Below, piece after piece: positions 2,124 to 35,305 of a DNA stretch of 64,000 bases. The stretch is from Nitrosopumilus sp. (GTDB lineage Archaea > Thermoproteota > Nitrososphaeria > Nitrososphaerales > Nitrosopumilaceae). The notes under the pieces are model-generated. The model worked only from the letters and a program-made list of their open reading frames with translations, was not told the origin of the DNA and ran no database searches. The stretch is taken from positions 800,001 to 864,000 of the forward strand of contig OZ243974.1 in assembly GCA_965214775.1 (NCBI GenBank), in the 5' to 3' direction. The position numbers and the translations under genes were made by a program. The number at the start of each line of letters is the position of its first letter. The first letter of the stretch is position 1.

Positions 2124-5100
2124 TTAGCTTACGTTGATGGTCGTACTTAGCGGTGGTGATAGTGCCGTAGGATTGGTAACGGACTCCCAGACAAATGCAG
2201 TAGCAGTGTATGCTCCTGAATCGGCTGGAATCCATGACACGGCCGGGCTGAATGACTGACCTGGAGTCAGTTCACCATCAATCCATGACAGTGAGACTGT
2301 GACGCCGTTTGCATCCTGAATCTGTACCAGGTATGCAAATAGCTGCTCCTTGTCCTGGCCATTTGCCAAGTCGGCGCTGACCTGTACCTGTTGATCAACG
2401 GAAACAGAGTCTAACGTGTTTCCAAATGAGTCAACTGTCTTCAAGTTAGCAACTGGTGCTCTCTCGAGGGGCGGTACGACAGTGCCGATTAGCGAAGTGG
2501 CCTTGACATCAATACTGTCTCCAGTGTCGTATGGTTCAGGTAGCGTATAATCATCGTAACTTGCGGTGACTGTGTCACCTTCTGCGACTCTGAGTCTGTG
2601 GCCGGTTGATACGTCGGTAACCGTAAAGAATACGGTGCCTTCGAAGATTCCGGTTGCCTCGTTTGTCTCAGTTACGGTAAGACCAATACCTCCTGAATCG
2701 GAGTCAGACCATACATCTACCTCAAAGTTGTCGACTGCTTCTGGATCTAGGTTCATGTCTGGATCAATTATTCTTACAACACCTGTTCCGCTAGCTGGAT
2801 AGCTTGCCTCTAACCACTGGACTTCACCGATGTTCCATCTGACGAGTGCTGACGCAACTACAGTCTCCTTCTCTGAGAATTCAAAGGAGATGGAAAGTCC
2901 GTCATCGTCCCTGGCTGGCAACAGTCCATCAGTTGGACCGTTGCCCTCGGCGTCACGTGGATTTACATCATAGCCGGCATCATCGCCAGTCTCGGAATCG
3001 CCATCAGCATCATATCTGAAACCAGTAAGGATAACCTCACCGGTAAAGATACCTGTGTCGGTTCCGGTCTCGACTAGCTTGTACTGGTCAAGATCGGCGT
3101 CTCTGGTTGAGACCTTTATCGGGTCCAAGTCAGTGTCACCGATTTCGTCAACCAGGTCGCCGTCGAAGTTGTGGTCTGGGGCTACGATTGTGATGTATAC
3201 CTTGTCAGTCCATGTGTAGACTTTTTGATCAAGCTCTATGGTTGCACCGAAGTTCGAAGTGTAGACAGTCAGGTTGACGTCTTCGTCTTCGTCACCTACA
3301 TAGTCAGATCCGGATGGGCCCCAGTCAGTATACTCGAGGGCAATCTCTTCGCCCCTTTCTAACCTGTCACCAGCAAGTTCATCAGGAACCTCGATGACAA
3401 CCTGGAAGATACCAGTGCTGTCACCTGTTTCTCTAAAGTCTGTTGGTTCTGGGTCGAATTTGTCTGGCTCAACGCCACGGTCGCCCATGGAAGTTGTTGC
3501 CGCATCAGAGTCCCATTCGATCAGGTCCAGGTCATAGGTCTCGGCACCGTCATTGTCCAGATCCAAGTCTGGCTCAATGAGTGTCAGGATCATGTCTGAA
3601 CCGATGATGTAGACGGATTTGTCGGATTGCAATACGCCGTTTCTCAGGTCAAAGGTTGCAGAGTCAGTTACAGAGTTCTCATCGCCTGATGCATCAGTCG
3701 GGTCTGTGTATTCTACCTGGAGAATGTCTCCCTGCAGGATACAGAAGTCCTCACCCTGTGAGTAGGTATCATCGACATCAAACCTGTCTTCTGTGTTACC
3801 AAGGGCGTTATTCTCGCTGTCGACAAGGATTTCGTAAACAGAGTCGTTTGGACATTGGTTATCTGCAGGACCATCAGTGTATCTAAGAGTCAAGTCTAAC
3901 TCGTAAATGCCTGCGTCTGGTGCAATTTCGGAAATCGGACCAAATTCCCTGATGTTGTCTGCCGGATTAGGGTTATCATCACCGACATCAATCAGGCCAT
4001 CTTTTGGATCCGGACCGCCTGCATAACCGAGTACTACTGTTGAAGAACCTCTGGTAACAGAGACTTTAACAGGTCCTACTCCCTCGTCTGTAGTGGTAGC
4101 GATTGAATCTTCACCGGATGCGTTTACGTCAAAGTCTGGATCGTTGACTCGGATGTGTATTGTGAGATCACCGTTAGCAAGGTATTCGCCAGTGTCTAGA
4201 CCACGTGTACCTCCCATACCAGTTTGATGGATTGGGAATACTGATCTGCCATCTGGGTTTTGTGAATTGCTGTCAGCAAAGTCATCTGCGGTACCAAATG
4301 GTACTGGATAGACGGTTCTGTCCAGGCTGACAGAGCCGGTGTTGGCCCTAACGCCTGCCGAATCGCCTACCTCGATGATTTCGCCGGATGCGTCACGGAA
4401 GTCAACATAGTTGACCTCAATGTCAAGTCCTGTCGTAGTCTCTGGCTGTGTTGCATCTGGCCTACACCATTGGGATGGAATCTGGAAGTCACCAGTGAAA
4501 ATGCCTGTATCTGAACCAGTTTCCGCTAATGTGAATCCGGTAGCGCCAAGACCGTCAAAGTCTGCGCCTGTAGAACAGTCATTTCCATCAGTCCACTTGG
4601 CATCATCAAATGTGACATCAAGCAGTCTTCCCAGAGAACCAAATGCAAGGCCGTCTGGATTATCGTTTGATCTCTTCTCCAAATTACTGTGTACATCGTT
4701 ACCGACTTGGTCATTGTCTGCATCAAGTGATGCGTCAATGTCAACGACGGTATAGATTTCGAGCAGGTCAGAGTCCACGTTGAGATCCGCGTCCTCAAGC
4801 GTAATCACCACGGTATCAGCAACCTTGTAGGAATCCTGATTCAGTGACACGACGCCAGAGTGGCTCGGAGCTGGTTCCTGGTCAGATCGTACAGTAATAA
4901 CGCCATCTTCACCCAAGTCATTGTATGAGACTCTAGGTGAATCCTCGTCAGTAAGATCCTCAATTACGATGAAGGAGGGATCACTGGCGATGGTTGCAAG
5001 ACCAGAGTAAGTACCCTCGTCTAAGATGTTAAGCTGGTTGACCATGGCGTATTCAAGTTCGCCCTCAAAGGTGCTGGTATTGTCACCTGACTCTTCGGCC

Positions 5101-7061
5101 TCGATTCTGATTATTTGGTTTGCAACCCTTTCTCCGGCTTGCTCACCGTCATCAGTAAAACCAAATGAGAAGAAGTCGGTGACTATCGGATATTTACCGT
5201 CGATTTCAAACGTAGTACCTTCGCTCCAGGAATACTGTATGCCTACTGTACCACTTCCTACATCATTGGCCACAGCGCTAGACTGGGCGTCTGTTAGGAC
5301 TACCAGACCCTGTGGATCAGATACTTGGAAGCTGGCTATTGGACGATTGGTATCCGCAACACCCAGCAGACTGATCGTAATGTCGCCTGTAGTGTTAAGC
5401 GATCTGATGTCGTAGTTGAGTAGGTTGTATCCTTTGAAGTCAGTGCTCCAGTCCACGGTGTTTGATTCCATGACTGTGCCTTGCAGATCGCCTATTGTGG
5501 CTTTTGTATCAACGAGTATCGTTGTAATATCGGTAGAATCGATTAAAGTACTACCAGAATACGTGATGACTGCTCTGTCACTGAATGTTTCAATGTTGAC
5601 GTCTGGAGTGGCTAAGTTATTCGCACTATCACGTACCTCTACAGTAGCATTAGTATCGCCCTCGACTCCACCTTCACCTAACGTAAACGGATCACCAGTA
5701 CTAAGTGCTGGAATCAGTGATACGTTTGGATCAGATAGAATAAGATCCTCGTCTGCCCTGCTGTTCTTGTTTTGATCACCATCGACAATGACTACTGGAA
5801 TGGTCTCACCAGAGTTCCATGTATCGTCGACTGGTTGGATGACAACATCAGCAGTGTAAAATCCTGCCAGAACGGTTACTGGTGAATCGTTATAGCCTAC
5901 TGTCGCCGATGTTTGTCTTTTGGCATCATTGCTTATTGTGAGAATCGATGTGTCGGATTCGTCATACGTACCAAATACACCGCTGTTTGGTCCCTGTTCT
6001 GTGAGCGTTACAAGGTGTGTGATATCACCAATGGATATGTGAGCAGCATCACTGTTAGATTGAAGCTCCACAACATCAACATCAGTGCCCTGTGCATCAG
6101 GATCCAGCGTAAAGACCGCATCTTCCTGCATCAGGGATGCACCGGAAACGTCGGTAGTGACAAGAGCGCCACCATCGATGCCCGGCGAGTTGCCGCTTTG
6201 GTCAAAGACCTGGTAGTATGTTCCACCGTTTATGGCGTCCCAACTCCAAGAGTCCTCGTCTGTAGGATCGATGTTCAGCCAGGTGTCGGTAACGGTTGCG
6301 TGGACTTGTGAGCCCGGTGTGTATTTGCTACCGTCCATCATGATACCGGCAAAGCCGTCGACTGTGTCAAAGGTGAGCGAAGTCGACTGGACTCCGCCAC
6401 CGGCGTTGTACTGTACGACAACACTGCCTGTTGGGTTGAGATCATAAAGTTGGATTATGGGCCAAAATTTGTTTTTAAGGCCAATTTGACCCCGCTCAAC
6501 AGTAATGTTGTTATTATTGTCCATTCTTTCTGGATTGATTTCTTTTTCTCCTCTTAGTACGTTCATGATGTCACTACCAGCGAGTGCGCCTGTAGTCGTA
6601 CAGTCTGCAGTAGCATTACTGGGAATTGCAACACCATCAGCATCGGAAAATGAGACGCCACCAATTGTATCCTCATAACAGATTGTACCAAAGTCAAGTC
6701 CTTTACCAGGATATTCTACGGTATCATCTGCGTTTTCTGCCATTGTTTTTTCGGCAAAGTAGCCGTACCATTGGCCGTCAGTGGCCTGAACCATTCTCAA
6801 GTCCTGGCCGTTAACGGTAACGTCGGGCTCACCTTCGCTTTCATCGGTATCACGTAGGTCAGAATCACTAATGACTACCTCGATTACCTGAGGACCTGCC
6901 ATATAGTTCTCAAACTGTGAGTTTTCTGCGGAGACAACCAGGTTCTCGTTGGCAGCATATGCAGCCGGCATCATGCCAGGGACTGCAAATGTCATACCGC
7001 CGGCAACCATGATTGCCATCAATATTAAACTAGTTGTTTTTCTTTGTATTTCTTCATGCAT
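2124..7061 (-). CDS. slaA: Major S-layer protein, Nitrosopumilus SlaA-like
   Basis: 1645 aa, very acidic, signal peptide, repeated ETGxxTGIFxG Ig-like modules, typical C-terminus AFVWESVTNPTALSPP. Confidence 0.9.
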   Translation of the reverse strand: MHEEIQRKTTSLILMAIMVAGGMTFAVPGMMPAAYAANENLVVSAENSQFENYMAGPQVIEVVISDSDLRDTDESEGEPDVTVNGQDLRMVQATDGQWYGYFAEKTMAENADDTVEYPGKGLDFGTICYEDTIGGVSFSDADGVAIPSNATADCTTTGALAGSDIMNVLRGEKEINPERMDNNNNITVERGQIGLKNKFWPIIQLYDLNPTGSVVVQYNAGGGVQSTSLTFDTVDGFAGIMMDGSKYTPGSQVHATVTDTWLNIDPTDEDSWSWDAINGGTYYQVFDQSGNSPGIDGGALVTTDVSGASLMQEDAVFTLDPDAQGTDVDVVELQSNSDAAHISIGDITHLVTLTEQGPNSGVFGTYDESDTSILTISNDAKRQTSATVGYNDSPVTVLAGFYTADVVIQPVDDTWNSGETIPVVIVDGDQNKNSRADEDLILSDPNVSLIPALSTGDPFTLGEGGVEGDTNATVEVRDSANNLATPDVNIETFSDRAVITYSGSTLIDSTDITTILVDTKATIGDLQGTVMESNTVDWSTDFKGYNLLNYDIRSLNTTGDITISLLGVADTNRPIASFQVSDPQGLVVLTDAQSSAVANDVGSGTVGIQYSWSEGTTFEIDGKYPIVTDFFSFGFTDDGEQAGERVANQIIRIEAEESGDNTSTFEGELEYAMVNQLNILDEGTYSGLATIASDPSFIVIEDLTDEDSPRVSYNDLGEDGVITVRSDQEPAPSHSGVVSLNQDSYKVADTVVITLEDADLNVDSDLLEIYTVVDIDASLDADNDQVGNDVHSNLEKRSNDNPDGLAFGSLGRLLDVTFDDAKWTDGNDCSTGADFDGLGATGFTLAETGSDTGIFTGDFQIPSQWCRPDATQPETTTGLDIEVNYVDFRDASGEIIEVGDSAGVRANTGSVSLDRTVYPVPFGTADDFADSNSQNPDGRSVFPIHQTGMGGTRGLDTGEYLANGDLTIHIRVNDPDFDVNASGEDSIATTTDEGVGPVKVSVTRGSSTVVLGYAGGPDPKDGLIDVGDDNPNPADNIREFGPISEIAPDAGIYELDLTLRYTDGPADNQCPNDSVYEILVDSENNALGNTEDRFDVDDTYSQGEDFCILQGDILQVEYTDPTDASGDENSVTDSATFDLRNGVLQSDKSVYIIGSDMILTLIEPDLDLDNDGAETYDLDLIEWDSDAATTSMGDRGVEPDKFDPEPTDFRETGDSTGIFQVVIEVPDELAGDRLERGEEIALEYTDWGPSGSDYVGDEDEDVNLTVYTSNFGATIELDQKVYTWTDKVYITIVAPDHNFDGDLVDEIGDTDLDPIKVSTRDADLDQYKLVETGTDTGIFTGEVILTGFRYDADGDSETGDDAGYDVNPRDAEGNGPTDGLLPARDDDGLSISFEFSEKETVVASALVRWNIGEVQWLEASYPASGTGVVRIIDPDMNLDPEAVDNFEVDVWSDSDSGGIGLTVTETNEATGIFEGTVFFTVTDVSTGHRLRVAEGDTVTASYDDYTLPEPYDTGDSIDVKATSLIGTVVPPLERAPVANLKTVDSFGNTLDSVSVDQQVQVSADLANGQDKEQLFAYLVQIQDANGVTVSLSWIDGELTPGQSFSPAVSWIPADSGAYTATAFVWESVTNPTALSPPLSTTINVS

Positions 7062-7603: not shown

Positions 7604-7898
7604 CACACAGGCACACGAAACGCGCCATACGCCCCCCACCATAAAATTCCAAGCACAAATTAAACTTCAAGCAAAAATTAAAACATTATTCCACCAACAA
7701 ATTCAATTTCATCGCTACATTCACACAAATTCAAATTCCAACAAAAATAAAAAAGCGTGCCCCGCCGTCATACAAATTACATTTTAAAATAAATTCAAAC
7801 GTCAAACTAAAAAATTATAATTTTTTCCTGGCATCTACTGCAAAAGATCAAACAGACATGAATTCAAGCTAGACAGACAACTGGTATGATGGTATGGG

Positions 7899-7933
7899 GG
7901 TTGTTTCCTAATTCCACTTGTTTGACTCAATCT
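7899..7933. mobile_element. Left end of a family D element, interrupted by the IS110-type insertion
   Basis: GGTTGTTTCCTAATTCCACTTGTTTGACTCAATCT matches the first 35 bp of copies 1 and 2. Confidence 0.7.
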
Positions 7934-7990
7934 CCCATATGAAATCGTACCTAATCCTACCGTGGACTCTTGCCAGCTTGATGTTCCAAA

Positions 7991-8218
7991 TCAGGACAAT
8001 GTTACTATGCGATGCATCCCCATATACTTTCTCTGCGTGAGAGTCTTGTTCTGAATGCGGTACTCTTCTCCGGTGGTCAGCATGTGCCAGATTATCTCCA
8101 GCATATGCCTTGCAACTGCAATCTTTGCCTTCTGCCATCCTCGTCTCTTTCTTATCCTTTCATATATAGAACCAAGTCTTGAGTCGTTTCGTACTGCTAC
8201 TGTGGCCGAGTTGATCAT
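7991..8218 (-). pseudogene. IS110 recombinase remnant: start MIN fused to the C-terminal region
   Basis: YERIRKRRGWQKAKIAVARHMLEIIWHMLTTGEEY is a typical IS110 C-terminus; SD GGAGGTGA precedes the ATG. Confidence 0.85.
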
Positions 8219-8239
8219 GTTATCACCTCCTTTTTGATC

Positions 8240-8400
8240 AAAATGCCTGATCCGGGCGGAATCTCCCATTCACCGTCTGCGCGGTATATTGCTTTCCGCC
8301 TGCTGTTGTTGCAAGTCAGTCTGTTTGACACCCTTGTACATGGTAAGATTAAATCGACTCTCAGGCCCAGCAGTAATTGTATATCACAGGATACAGATAA
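8240..8400 (-). ncRNA. Putative IS110 bridge RNA, copy 1 (target-binding hairpin 8314-8359; donor-binding hairpin 8256-8299)
   Basis: Covarying stems versus 34810-34960; loops match the element's own junctions; boundaries approximate. Confidence 0.75.
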
Positions 8401-8541
8401 GATTTCATATAGCGTCTGTTTGTTTGCATCGCAATTTATTTTGGCACCATCTGAATTTTGTTTTTGAGACACATATGGTTACACGTATACGATGATAATA
8501 ACGGACAGGAAAAAGTCCGGGGACGACAACAAGACGGTGGA

Positions 8542-8632
8542 GTACGAGTTTGCCCCTCACCTGAGATACGGCGTGGCAGGCGTGAACATGAGGACTCTGG
8601 ACAGCAGTGACGCCCAAGGGGTAAACTCGTAC
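8542..8632. mobile_element. MITE family A (91 bp; TIR GTACGAGTTT(G/A)CCCCT)
   Basis: 16-bp TIR; reverse-orientation homolog of 35033-35123; no TSD visible. Confidence 0.85.
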
Positions 8633-9080
8633 CGTCCAAATTTCCTGTTCACACCTGATTTTATGGAGGATCTGATGTTGTACTTTCGGATAGTCTCTCA
8701 GGATGCCTGTACCCCTAGCCTTCGGGCCGCACCAGATCCAGGGAGGCCCGTGGCATGTCATACTCGAAGCGAAAACGGCTGAGGAGATCGGTGCCAAACA
8801 GTGCAAAGGAGAATGGGTCTTTGATCTCCGGATCCGGTCTCAAGACTTGCATGTCGGCGTGTAGCACGATGGGTTCTGAAGCCTGATCGTCTTCGAATAT
8901 GAATTTCGTGTCATCCATCACGTATGTGTCCTGCCTGCCGCCTATCCCCGTGGTACCGGTGGGGTGTTTTTCCAGCAACGCAAAGTCAATTTTGTGGTCT
9001 TTGGCTGCACCCTGCAGCATGGTTGTACTATTTGCCCCCGTATCTACCAAGAATCTGGTCTTGATAAAATTACCGTCACG

Positions 9081-10215
9081 TAGTATCCTCGACTACCAAT
9101 TGATCACAAAAAGGACAATTTTTTTCAACCAAAGGATCTAAGAGCTATTAGTCCCATATATACACATGAAAGGAAAGAAGGAATTACCGACGGGAACAGC
9201 GTTCCTGTACGGGATAGCAAGCAAGGACGAGCTTTTTAGGATGCACAAGTCCGAGAAGGACGCCAAGGCGGCAATCCGGCTCCTTGCATACCACATGAGA
9301 AAGTGCGGCGCGAGCATATATGATATTGCCGAGAAGCTGAGCAGGCCGTATGGAACCGTACGATACTGGCTGGTGCGTGCGCACAAGCATGGCCTGGAGG
9401 GCAGGTTTGACATAAAGCATGGCGCCCCGTGCAGGCTCGACAAGAAACAGCTTGAACGGCTGCGCGCAGACCTGATCAAGGGCCCGGACAACTGCGGCTT
9501 TAAGGCCACAACATGGACAGGGCCGCTGGTCATTGCCCACGTCAAAAAGAAGTTCGGCATCACGTATGCAGAAACGAGCATGTACGACCTGCTGCACAGA
9601 ATCGGCTTCTCATGCAGAAAGCCCAGGCCAAAACACCCAAAATCAGCCTCAGAATCCGAGAAAAAGGAGTTCAAAAAAAAAGCTAGGCAGAGCGCAAAGT
9701 ACTATTCAAAAAAGGGGTACACGGTAATGATAGGCGACGAGTCCATGTTCATACTGGGATGGAACGTCAAGAACAGCTGGTACCCCGTAGGAGAGCCGGT
9801 CTATACGCCCGTCAGCCTGTCTAGGAAGCGGTTCTATGTCATAGGGGCCCTCTCAAGAAACAGGTTTGACTATCGCTTTTACGAAAAGGCCAACACGGGA
9901 ACGTTCTACAAGTTTCTCAGGACACTGCGCCGCAAGTACGGCAAGGTGTTGTTGTTTGTCGACAACGCATCGTACCACAAGTCAGCAGAACTCAATAGAA
10001 AGATGGCCAAGTGGAACGGGGACGTGGTGCTAAAGTACCTGCCGCCGTACGCGCCGGAGCTTAACAACTCGGAGGGGCAGTGGCGCGGGTTCAAAAAGGC
10101 GACTTCAAACTGCCTTTACAAGACCGTCAAGGAGATGCAGAGATCACTGCGCAGTATGACGCGCAGGGGCGAGATAAAGGTGGTAAAGATGAACAAATGG
10201 CTGACGTAGATACTA
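9081..10215 (+). mobile_element. IS630-family element type B, copy 1 (1135 bp), flanked by CG
   Basis: Ends TAGTATC...GATACTA; near-identical to 47266-48400. Confidence 0.95.
9166..10209 (+). CDS. IS630 transposase (single unframeshifted ORF)
   Basis: HTH region, GDES, DNASYH and LPPYAPELNNSE motifs. Confidence 0.95.
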   Translation: MKGKKELPTGTAFLYGIASKDELFRMHKSEKDAKAAIRLLAYHMRKCGASIYDIAEKLSRPYGTVRYWLVRAHKHGLEGRFDIKHGAPCRLDKKQLERLRADLIKGPDNCGFKATTWTGPLVIAHVKKKFGITYAETSMYDLLHRIGFSCRKPRPKHPKSASESEKKEFKKKARQSAKYYSKKGYTVMIGDESMFILGWNVKNSWYPVGEPVYTPVSLSRKRFYVIGALSRNRFDYRFYEKANTGTFYKFLRTLRRKYGKVLLFVDNASYHKSAELNRKMAKWNGDVVLKYLPPYAPELNNSEGQWRGFKKATSNCLYKTVKEMQRSLRSMTRRGEIKVVKMNKWLT

Positions 10216-34627: not shown

Positions 34628-34809
34628 CCCGCATCTGCCGGGGTGCGGTAAGGCCATAGGCCTGAACAATGAACTGACGCGCCCTAGGATGCGGCGTGAG
34701 GTACATGATGATCAGGATCTTGTCCGGCAGTGCAGCCTAGGGAGTGGTGGGATAAACTCCAATATCAAATTATGCTGATTCCTTGCAGTATGAGACGTTA
34801 TATCAAATC

Positions 34810-34960
34810 TTATCTGTAGCGGACGCCATATTATCCGTGTTGGGCCCAAGAGCCGAAGTAAACTTGCCACACATGAGGGCGCGTAAGAGACTGGCTCAGA
34901 GTAGACGGACGACGAAATGCCACATAATCGAGGGCGAATGGGAGTTTTCCGTTCAGTTGG
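34810..34960 (+). ncRNA. Putative IS110 bridge RNA, copy 2 (target-binding hairpin 34851-34896)
   Basis: Covarying stems; loops differ from copy 1; boundaries approximate. Confidence 0.72.
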
Positions 34961-35032
34961 GCACACACACTTTGATCAAAAAGGAGGTGATAAAATGATC
35001 AACATAGGAATAGACGTTCATAAGAAGACATG

Positions 35033-35123
35033 GTAAGAGTTTACCCCTCAGGCGACTCTGCTGGTCGGAGCCTTGATCACCGTGCCTACCACGTCGTATT
35101 TTCTGGAGGGGGTGAGCTCTTAC
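35033..35123. mobile_element. MITE family A (91 bp), 9-bp TSD GAAGACATG, inserted in the IS110 recombinase start
   Basis: TIR GTAAGAG(T/C)T(T/C)ACCCC; TSD at 35024-32 and 35124-32. Confidence 0.95.
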
Positions 35124-35154: not shown

Positions 35155-35236
35155 GTACAACTTCAGGTCCTATTTATACTGGCAAGCAAATACTTCCTAG
35201 ATTCCTAGGCGGTTTAAATAGGACCTGAAGTTGTAC
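35155..35236. mobile_element. 82-bp MITE-like element with perfect 22-bp TIR
   Basis: GTACAACTTCAGGTCCTATTTA...TAAATAGGACCTGAAGTTGTAC. Confidence 0.8.
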
Positions 35237-35305
35237 GAAGTCTTTGAGTCAAAGTAGGTCATAACTACACGTAAAAAACCTCAATTATTTCTGCTCGTTG
35301 CTATA
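35237..35305 (-). mobile_element. Partial IS630 type A end/MITE
   Basis: Reverse complement of about 11818-11886. Confidence 0.85.

Follow-up and report, generated by a model that had tools for sequence, protein, structure and literature searches.

Recombinase-less IS110-family mini elements of a Nitrosopumilus genome retain a bridge-RNA region with guides that match their own insertion sites

Results

A 484-bp element with both ends and a transposase remnant

We analysed a window of 64,000 nucleotides, which corresponds to positions 800001-864000 of the single 2,833,656-bp contig (47% G+C) of a Nitrosopumilus sp. genome, hereafter G000 (GenBank assembly GCA_965214775.1, contig OZ243974.1). 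The window contains, on its minus strand, a mini element related to the IS110 family, to which we refer as copy A and whose features are listed in Table 1. Read on that strand, the element extends from AGACGCTATATG at window position 8417 to CATATGGG at 7934; it opens with AGACGCTATATGAAATC and closes with CGATTTCATATGGG, directly followed by the second AGA. It consists of a 199-nt left end that includes the bridge-RNA region, the in-frame codons ATG-ATC-AAC joined to the last 72 codons of a transposase gene, and the right end. The remnant ORF occupies element nt 200-427 and comprises 75 codons, and the 72 residues after MIN (SATVAVRND...) align with the C-terminus of a 359-aa IS110-family transposase encoded elsewhere in the genome. 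The sequence, the list of open reading frames and this alignment thus confirm the preliminary description, in which MIN is fused to the last 72 codons within 484 bp. We also find AGA at both junctions, a perfect 10-bp pair of subterminal inverted repeats and the bridge-RNA region, in agreement with the earlier statement that the RNA region, the core and the subterminal repeats are intact. A Pfam search of the 75-aa remnant matched no family.

When searched against the genome, the full 484 bp gave matches with E-values of 1e-215 and 2e-207, a similarity well above chance. Within the 64,000-nt window no full-length relative of copy A was found, and the only other relative there is a 67%-identical left-end remnant at 34793-35003. 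Contigs of four public runs over window positions 7700-8650 were short pieces, none of which spans the whole element, and they showed no joints of the kind looked for as a trace of the circular intermediate of the IS110 family, in which a junction promoter drives the RNA. None of the 22 public runs listed is recorded as RNA.

Table 1. Features of copy A and its target within the window
Feature	Position	Strand	Basis or match
Left part of the repeated target unit of copy A	8418..8482	minus	uninterrupted across the junction in 13 copies
Mini element, 484 bp: left core AGA, left end, bridge-RNA region, 75-codon remnant ORF, right end	7934..8417	minus	
Left core copy AGA (common to all copies: AG only)	8415..8417	minus	single AGA in empty sites
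Left subterminal inverted repeat ATATGAAATC, element nt 8-17	8401..8410	minus	sequence reading
Structured bridge-RNA region, element nt 53-172	8246..8365	minus	alignment fold, pair counts
Target loop 5' strand UUAAUCU	8346..8352	minus	reverse complement of core + right flank AGATTGA, 6/7
Target loop 3' strand CAAACAGA	8320..8327	minus	equals left flank + core, 8/8
Donor loop 3' strand AAUGGGAGA	8262..8270	minus	right end + core TATGGG+AGA, 8/9
Start codon and deletion junction ATGATCAAC	8210..8218	minus	comparison with full element
Remnant ORF: MIN, last 72 codons and stop, without catalytic domain	7991..8218	minus	ORF list, Pfam
Right subterminal inverted repeat GATTTCATAT (element orientation)	7937..7946	minus	sequence reading
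Right core copy AGA, outside the limits of the preliminary description	7931..7933	minus	single AGA in empty sites
Right part of the target of copy A, to the limit of alignment with uninterrupted copies	7913..7933	minus	

The surroundings hold further mobile sequences. Just beyond copy A, at 9166-10209 (+), we observe a 347-aa transposase with DDE_3, HTH_33 and HTH_32 domains, which we take to be IS630-like. Short palindromic MITE-like repeats at 8540-8633, 35034-35123 and 35155-35240 gave 77, 67 and 68 BLAST matches in the genome, respectively, and one of them lies ~120 bp from the mini. The ORF at 2124-7061 (-) encodes 1645 aa, is hydrophobic over an N-terminal stretch and matches no Pfam family at E-values up to 0.01; in a second genome, the MAG G041, we find only 68-72% DNA matches to parts of it. 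The 67%-identical remnant belongs to a second IS110-family lineage, of which the left end, bridge-RNA region and first codons MINIGIDVHKKT are found at 34793-35033 (+), extending to about 35150, with a guide GUAAG beside the flank GTATG. A 90-bp palindromic element (35034-35123), with the 9-bp repeat GAAGACATG on its flanks, interrupts the frame of this second lineage, and a second palindromic element follows in it near 35155-35240. A motif search for right ends of this 67%-identical family found none.

Parent element and two types of internal deletion

The parent element in this genome has a length of 1336 bp, and three copies (F1, F2 and F3) carry an intact 359-aa gene, while a fourth full-length copy (F4, 1455 bp) is broken by an insertion. 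The 359-aa recombinase contains PF01548 at residues 4-155 and PF02371 at residues 219-303, and upon comparison with solved structures it matched the IS621 (8wt6) and ISCro4 transposases with E about 1e-12. In the minis of type 1, nt 209-1050 of the 1336 bp are lost with the frame kept. The full element has ATGATCAAC at nt 200-208 and ATGGTCAAC at nt 1052-1060, which form a direct repeat with 8 of 9 positions identical. The loss takes away the RuvC-like DEDD domain, as the preliminary description had proposed and as the absence of a Pfam match in the remnant, next to PF01548 and PF02371 in the full protein, corroborates. Nearly all of the Tnp domain is also gone, and the alignment to IS621 places the catalytic Ser region in the lost part. 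Since the remnant has no Pfam match and the parent has both domains, the mini is a derivative and not an autonomous IS110 member. A deletion between the two 9-bp near-repeats removed recombinase codons 4-287 and left the left end, the ~200-nt upstream region encoding the bridge (seek) RNA and the last 285 bp.

We found four type-1 minis of 478-484 bp in this genome, namely A in the window, B (181545-182022), C (2787934-2788411) and D (1122591-1124124), and a further one in G041. All four share the junction of ATGATCAAC with TCGGCCAC, and a derived 3-bp deletion just past the junction is present in B, C, D and the G041 copy and absent from A. Copy D is interrupted by a 1040-bp IS, and copy C is followed by a partial copy that starts at nt 96 and carries the nested IS seen in D. 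Three minis of a second type (E, F and G; 487 bp) have lost nt 387-1226, also in frame, and the cis region that both deletion types retain comprises the first 208 nt and the last 110 nt. Additionally, there are five 3'-truncated copies and several short end fragments. Upon searching the genome with a profile of the upstream region, we obtained 39 matches, 28 of them near-complete, and an uninterrupted recombinase match follows in only 3 of these 28.

The genome search for copies that the preliminary description had called for therefore recovered the deletion junction four times here and once in a second genome. The suspicion raised there, that the mini could be a one-off deletion after insertion, would go with a single copy; the junction is multi-copy, and so is the second, independent deletion type. 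Minis of both types are small, lack a transposase and occur in several copies, as MITEs do. Their termini, AGACGC... and ...CATATGGG, are not inverted repeats, and we call them MITE-like only, because the 10-bp repeats are subterminal and the repeated AGA is a recombination core and not a staggered-cut duplication.

Insertion sites of the minis

To find empty sites, the two flanks of each element were joined and searched against the genome. Uninterrupted matches spanning the junction were recovered for A (13), B (12), E (7) and G (5), and F2 gave nine weak matches at 76-85% identity; the same search returned no uninterrupted match for C and F4 and the self match only for F1. Empty sites contain a single AGA, whereas occupied sites read AGA-element-AGA. 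On the right side the core is AGT in F1 and TGT in F2, so the core common to all may be just AG, a dinucleotide reported as the recombination core of ISPpu9 in the accessible part of that study (PMC12288879). The core at both junctions, its single occurrence in empty sites and the lack of terminal inverted repeats are the marks of site-specific insertion.

The targets of the minis are repeats. B and D lie 55 bp inside another IS, and E/F and G lie in two further repeats, the copies of other IS elements that house B/D and E/F being near-identical. As the flanks of B and D are identical inside that IS, the two may have been copied with it, and likewise E and F. Taken over this genome and G041, the copies with the type-1 junction occupy at least three unrelated target contexts. 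Copy A sits at the end of a 69-86-bp repeat unit, which in 7 of its 13 uninterrupted copies is followed ~50 bp downstream by the gene of an IS110-family transposase with 34% identity (for example G000:C1 1626191-1627280 and 635452-634448). About 50 shorter copies of this target repeat stop at the same AGA, and several IS110-type elements seem to use the one site that copy A targets.

A conserved structure in the upstream region

Next, we examined the upstream region for secondary structure. The covariation alignment comprised 24 upstream regions, from the two families of this genome, outliers and two sequences of the relative G002. A long-range helix (nt 53-57 with 168-172) encloses two loop modules, of which the target-binding module has helices at nt 58-62/101-105 and 73-76/86-89, and the donor-binding module at nt 118-124/157-163 and 132-135/144-147. 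In four helices 97.4% of 429 cells pair, vs 18-43% with slid partners, and none of 500 shuffles reached the observed pairing or covariation score. Changes on both sides occur in 6 of 18 pairs; this double-change count was reached by 27 of 500 shuffles and the count of further pair types by 492 of 500, and there are few independent compensatory events, since most changes separate the two sequence families. The fifth helix, GGCGGAA/UUCCGCC at nt 118-124/157-163, closes the second module; at this place the alignment loses its register, and the helix was assessed by eye. Folding of a single sequence gave an energy that does not differ from that of shuffles (z = -0.17), so the structure is drawn from covariation only. 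An outer stem CUGCUG/CAGCAG considered for the target module was discarded, as it is absent in the second family and the alignment fold favours the long-range helix. An Rfam scan of window positions 7800-8700, at E-values up to 1, gave no match. A conserved RNA secondary structure, by which members of the IS110 family are recognised, is present.

Guides of the minis match their own flanks

We then compared the loops with the flanks of each copy. The 3' strand of the target loop, with five variable nucleotides, equals the five nucleotides of the left flank at 88 of 105 positions over 21 distinct flank/guide combinations. After shuffling guides against left flanks the mean was 45 and none of 100000 shuffles reached 88, a comparison that overstates independence because the copies are related. 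The 5' strand, read as the reverse complement of core plus right flank, matches at 7/7 positions in minis E and F, 6/7 in A, B, D and F1 and 5/7 in G and F2, and more poorly in F4 (4/7) and in C and F3 (3/7). The match is thus 5-7 of 7 in 8 of the 11 complete copies, which are those at native-looking targets; the right flank of C and F3 is a partial copy of the element and not a native target. In the donor loop, the second strand showed no continuous stretch matching the left end of the element.

Four combinations of guides and sites were observed. The intact copies F1 and F3 have UCAGU with GGAACU (UCCGU in F2) and lie at ...TCAGT-AG-TTCC. Minis B, C, D and the G041 copy have UUUAU with GUGAUCU and lie at TTTAT-AGA-TCTC (C at CTTAT), whereas E, F and G have CUUAU or CUUAC with AUGAUCU and lie at CTTAT-AGA-TC. 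Finally, copy A has CAAAC with UUAAUCU and lies at CAAAC-AGA-TTGA, its target loop (CAAACAGA and UUAAUCU) differing from that of the intact copies (UCAGUAGA and GGAACU). All seven minis of this genome match their own left flank at 7-8 of 8 positions. None of the seven lies at the TCAGT-AG-TTCC target of the intact copies, and the complete G041 copy is also elsewhere.

The position of the minis at sites of their own guides is as self-guidance predicts, although degraded full-length siblings with the same loops, acting as guides, would give an equal pattern; the truncated copies T1252 and T549 show that such siblings formerly existed. A further truncated copy, T2169 (G000:C1:2169386-2169916), lies at a site of the intact copies' type, and its guide CTTAT matches the flank TCAGT at only 4 of 8 positions, which points to trans guidance by the RNA of another copy, or loop exchange, occurring as well. 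Of the two readings offered in the preliminary description, a self-guided unit needing a recombinase in trans gains support, as each mini has guides that fit its own flanks and are unlike those of the three intact copies. The other, a stand-alone guide cassette, fits these guides less well, as does a one-off deletion.

Tandem joins and a solo left end

Several copies carry rearrangements that look like half-site events. Immediately behind F3 (G000:C1:2749477-2751230) lies a second, 100%-identical copy of its nt 919-1336, so that the right end of F3 is joined to its own nt 919, at an internal site, ATAGTAGA, that agrees with the left guide in 6 of 8 positions. In C, the right end abuts nt 96 of another mini, just past the stretch encoding the left guide. 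A solo left end (nt 1-97; G000:C1:~1348576-1348672) breaks off right behind the guide TCAGTAG, and what follows is TTCC, which forms the right half of the intact copies' target. The tandem joins and the solo end look like reciprocal products of a right junction recombining with guide-encoding DNA as a pseudo-target, and the 100% identity at the F3 join would be a sign of recent activity. Half-match recombination has been reported for IS621 in the accessible part of a preprint (bioRxiv 10.64898/2026.08.31.748434). The likeness is that right ends are joined here to internal sites that match the guide for the left flank only; the difference is that these are natural archaeal products, with the guide-encoding DNA itself as the pseudo-target.

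The minis in a second genome and other relatives

An exact 30-nt donor-loop pattern was found at three places in one other genome, G041. Its type-1 mini has the junction, the 3-bp deletion and the guides of B, C and D; over 407 nt it shares 99.0% identity with C, and a 1253-bp insertion splits it. Both flanks of this mini align with G000 1189776-1191941, the left one along 2065 bp (99.86% identity) and the right one along 105 bp (100%). The orthologous site in G000 is empty, and the two flank alignments overlap by the 3-bp AGA. From this clean presence and absence it follows that a recombinase-less element was inserted or precisely removed after G000 and G041 diverged. G041 also holds one partial type-2 mini, at a different kind of target. 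The closest intact family recombinase of G041 is 55% identical, and as no intact one lies above this level, its minis may be relics.

The surrounding stretch, G000:C1:1183958-1197643 against G041:C2:1900000-1917086, covers about 14-17 kb at 98-99.9% identity with several IS-sized insertion differences. The other compared regions of the two genomes are about 70% similar or unmatched, which suggests that the shared stretch is a recently exchanged island. At G041:C2:1917426-1917670 and 1962977-1963221, element nt 1-245 occur at 95% identity, followed ~240 bp on by a 76%-identical piece of nt 1178-1255, and the two copies may belong to a third short form, a chimeric one. No orthologue of the window region was found in G041, where the best matches are repeats, and the flanks of B and G gave only matches to repeated IS there. 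Among the genomes of 40 other relatives there were no close copies, and two had only weak matches, short and of 68-90% identity. Metagenome contigs scanned for the exact patterns of the deletion junction and of the donor-loop region gave 0 matches each.

Discussion

Building on the anatomy, the copy number, the empty sites, the insertion polymorphism of a sister lineage and the covariation of guides with flanks and of paired helix positions, we consider it probable that copy A is a non-autonomous, internally deleted archaeal member of the IS110 family, guided by its own RNA and moved in trans. The mini would retain the donor ends and the AG core that the complex of recombinase and RNA acts on, and would encode a complete bridge RNA while lacking the recombinase. 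One of the three intact copies would supply the enzyme, by which the mini is excised and joined, and the target loop of the mini itself would then steer it to a site whose left flank, AG and right flank match that loop. We infer that this RNA is transcribed and works on its own element, and that copy A went on moving after the deletion.

The placement of copy A itself is mixed. Downstream of the junction it is 96.7-98.3% identical to B and D vs 93-95% to the full-length copies, and in the 40 nt past the junction it shares with the type-1 minis three states that are absent from all four full-length copies. At the same time it keeps the ancestral AGT lost in B, C and D, is the only copy with its guide pair, and shares its 3' guide and a 3-nt linker insertion with T549, a truncated full-length copy in a paralogous target. 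Copy A may therefore be an early type-1 branch with a replaced loop, a recombinant, or a second deletion at the same repeat. The last of these leads to an alternative in which copy A is a dead relic: an element of full length, bearing the CAAAC guide, would have inserted here, dropped nt 209-1050 on the spot through slippage at the 9-bp repeat from which the other minis also arose, and never moved as a mini. A junction within an 8/9 direct repeat could recur, and the kept AGT, the truncated sibling with the same 3' guide and the sole copy of this guide type all agree with such a history; the three shared states and the closer identity to B and D past the junction speak against it, as does the movement, or precise loss, seen for the sister lineage and for minis of the second deletion type. 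We regard it as unlikely for copy A.

Passive multiplication, by rides inside other IS, by segmental duplication or by gene conversion of resident full-length copies, could account for B/D and E/F within near-identical copies of other IS, for the partial second copy after C and for the recombinant look of the loops of A. It is nevertheless improbable, given that the contexts of A, B/D, C and the G041 copy differ, each with exact boundaries of element plus AGA, and that conversion would not yield the clean presence and absence of a whole mini between G041 and G000 with flanks 99.9-100% identical. Still more remote is the view that the minis are a domesticated, immobile guide or regulatory RNA gene kept by the host. 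The scarcity of intact recombinase genes behind the near-complete bridge-RNA-like regions (3 of 28) would suit it; yet the copies lie within mobile elements and repeats, differ between genomes and are themselves targeted by other IS, and close copies occur in none of the 40 relatives sampled.

Compared with known systems, the full-length partner resembles IS621 and other IS110 elements, as described in the accessible parts of PMC11208160 and PMC11208158, in its DEDD and Tnp domains, its upstream RNA and the two loop modules. The two guides of IS621 both include the core, the left one pairing with the bottom strand and the right one with the top strand (accessible parts of PMC11208160, PMC11208158), and here likewise the target loop reads the left flank with the core, and the complement of the core with the right flank. 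Further features held in common with what is accessible on IS621 are a short core present at each of the two junctions and the use of repeats as targets. The differences from that account are the mini without a recombinase, the 10-bp subterminal repeats and the archaeal host. The core also differs, being CT in the accessible description of IS621 and AG(A) here. The order of guides is reversed as well: the accessible account of IS621 puts LTG (50-58) before RTG (77-80), whereas here the complement of the right flank comes first.

A top-strand complement in first position is the IS1111-type order in the accessible part of Siddiquee et al. (PMC11187229). In the IS1111 seekRNA elements, as far as that source describes them, the RNA lies downstream of the gene, whereas here it lies upstream, as in the IS110 type. 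All copies show, in element nt 1-199, this mixed layout of an IS110-type RNA position, an IS1111-type guide order and 10-bp subterminal repeats, measured against the accessible descriptions. The same source reports laboratory mini IS with ~84 bp and 71 bp of ends that move with transposase and RNA in trans (Siddiquee et al. 2024, PMC11187229), and it notes natural reprogramming of IS1111/IS110 seekRNA elements. Function in trans of engineered mini IS and bridge or seek RNAs is described in accessible parts of PMC11187229 and PMC11208160. The mini IS of the accessible PMC11187229 text are constructs without the RNA gene, whereas the natural minis found here retain it.

The closest natural case is MITEPpu9 of Pseudomonas putida, which lacks a transposase, has flanks like IS ends and is thought to be mobilised in trans (Pares-Guillen et al. 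2025, accessible part of PMC12288879). According to that part of the study, it is similarly MITE-like, linked to the IS110 family and recombined at an AG dinucleotide; it carries the Ssr9 small RNA from downstream of tnp, whereas the minis here carry the upstream bridge RNA. In the accessible part of PMC12288879 it is not a guide-keeping internal deletion, and no match of its own guide to its flanks is described there. Partial IS110 fragments that share >99% identity and occupy independent sites, alongside donor and target loci that are empty, have also been reported in the accessible part of a preprint (bioRxiv 10.64898/2026.08.14.744561), in whose assay elements with a truncated recombinase were inactive. 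Those fragments are described as partial excision products of expanded bacterial loci, and no guide-diversified deletion derivative is described in the part accessible. We found no description of natural guide-keeping IS110 minis in the accessible part of the open-access literature, the supplements of which may list defective or RNA-only IS110 loci. What appears to be new, judging from the elements described here and from those accessible sources, is the natural occurrence, in an archaeon, of IS110-family elements that have undergone internal deletion yet retain and diversify a bridge RNA of their own.

Recombination by bridge or seek RNA has so far been described as a two-part autonomous system, and RNA acting in trans and mini donors have been shown with engineered constructs. 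Here a natural population splits the system into few enzyme-making copies and more numerous copies made of ends plus guide. It provides a natural record of guide reprogramming, with at least four left-guide classes, each at matching sites, and its two independent deletion types mark a minimal cis region. The minis are also a testable case of whether the RNA prefers the element that encodes it, and they extend bridge-RNA biology to an archaeon. More tentatively, the minis, which outnumber the intact copies here by seven to three, might be guide-carrying parasites of the recombinase, each drawing its own RNA preferentially from its own excised circle, reaching targets of its own and exploring targets faster than its masters, since loops would diverge or be swapped without cost to a protein gene. 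If such parasitism were true, minis could persist, or be cross-mobilised, without a close master, as in G041, and the guide-encoding DNA would be a built-in pseudo-target that generates tandem and solo-end rearrangements.
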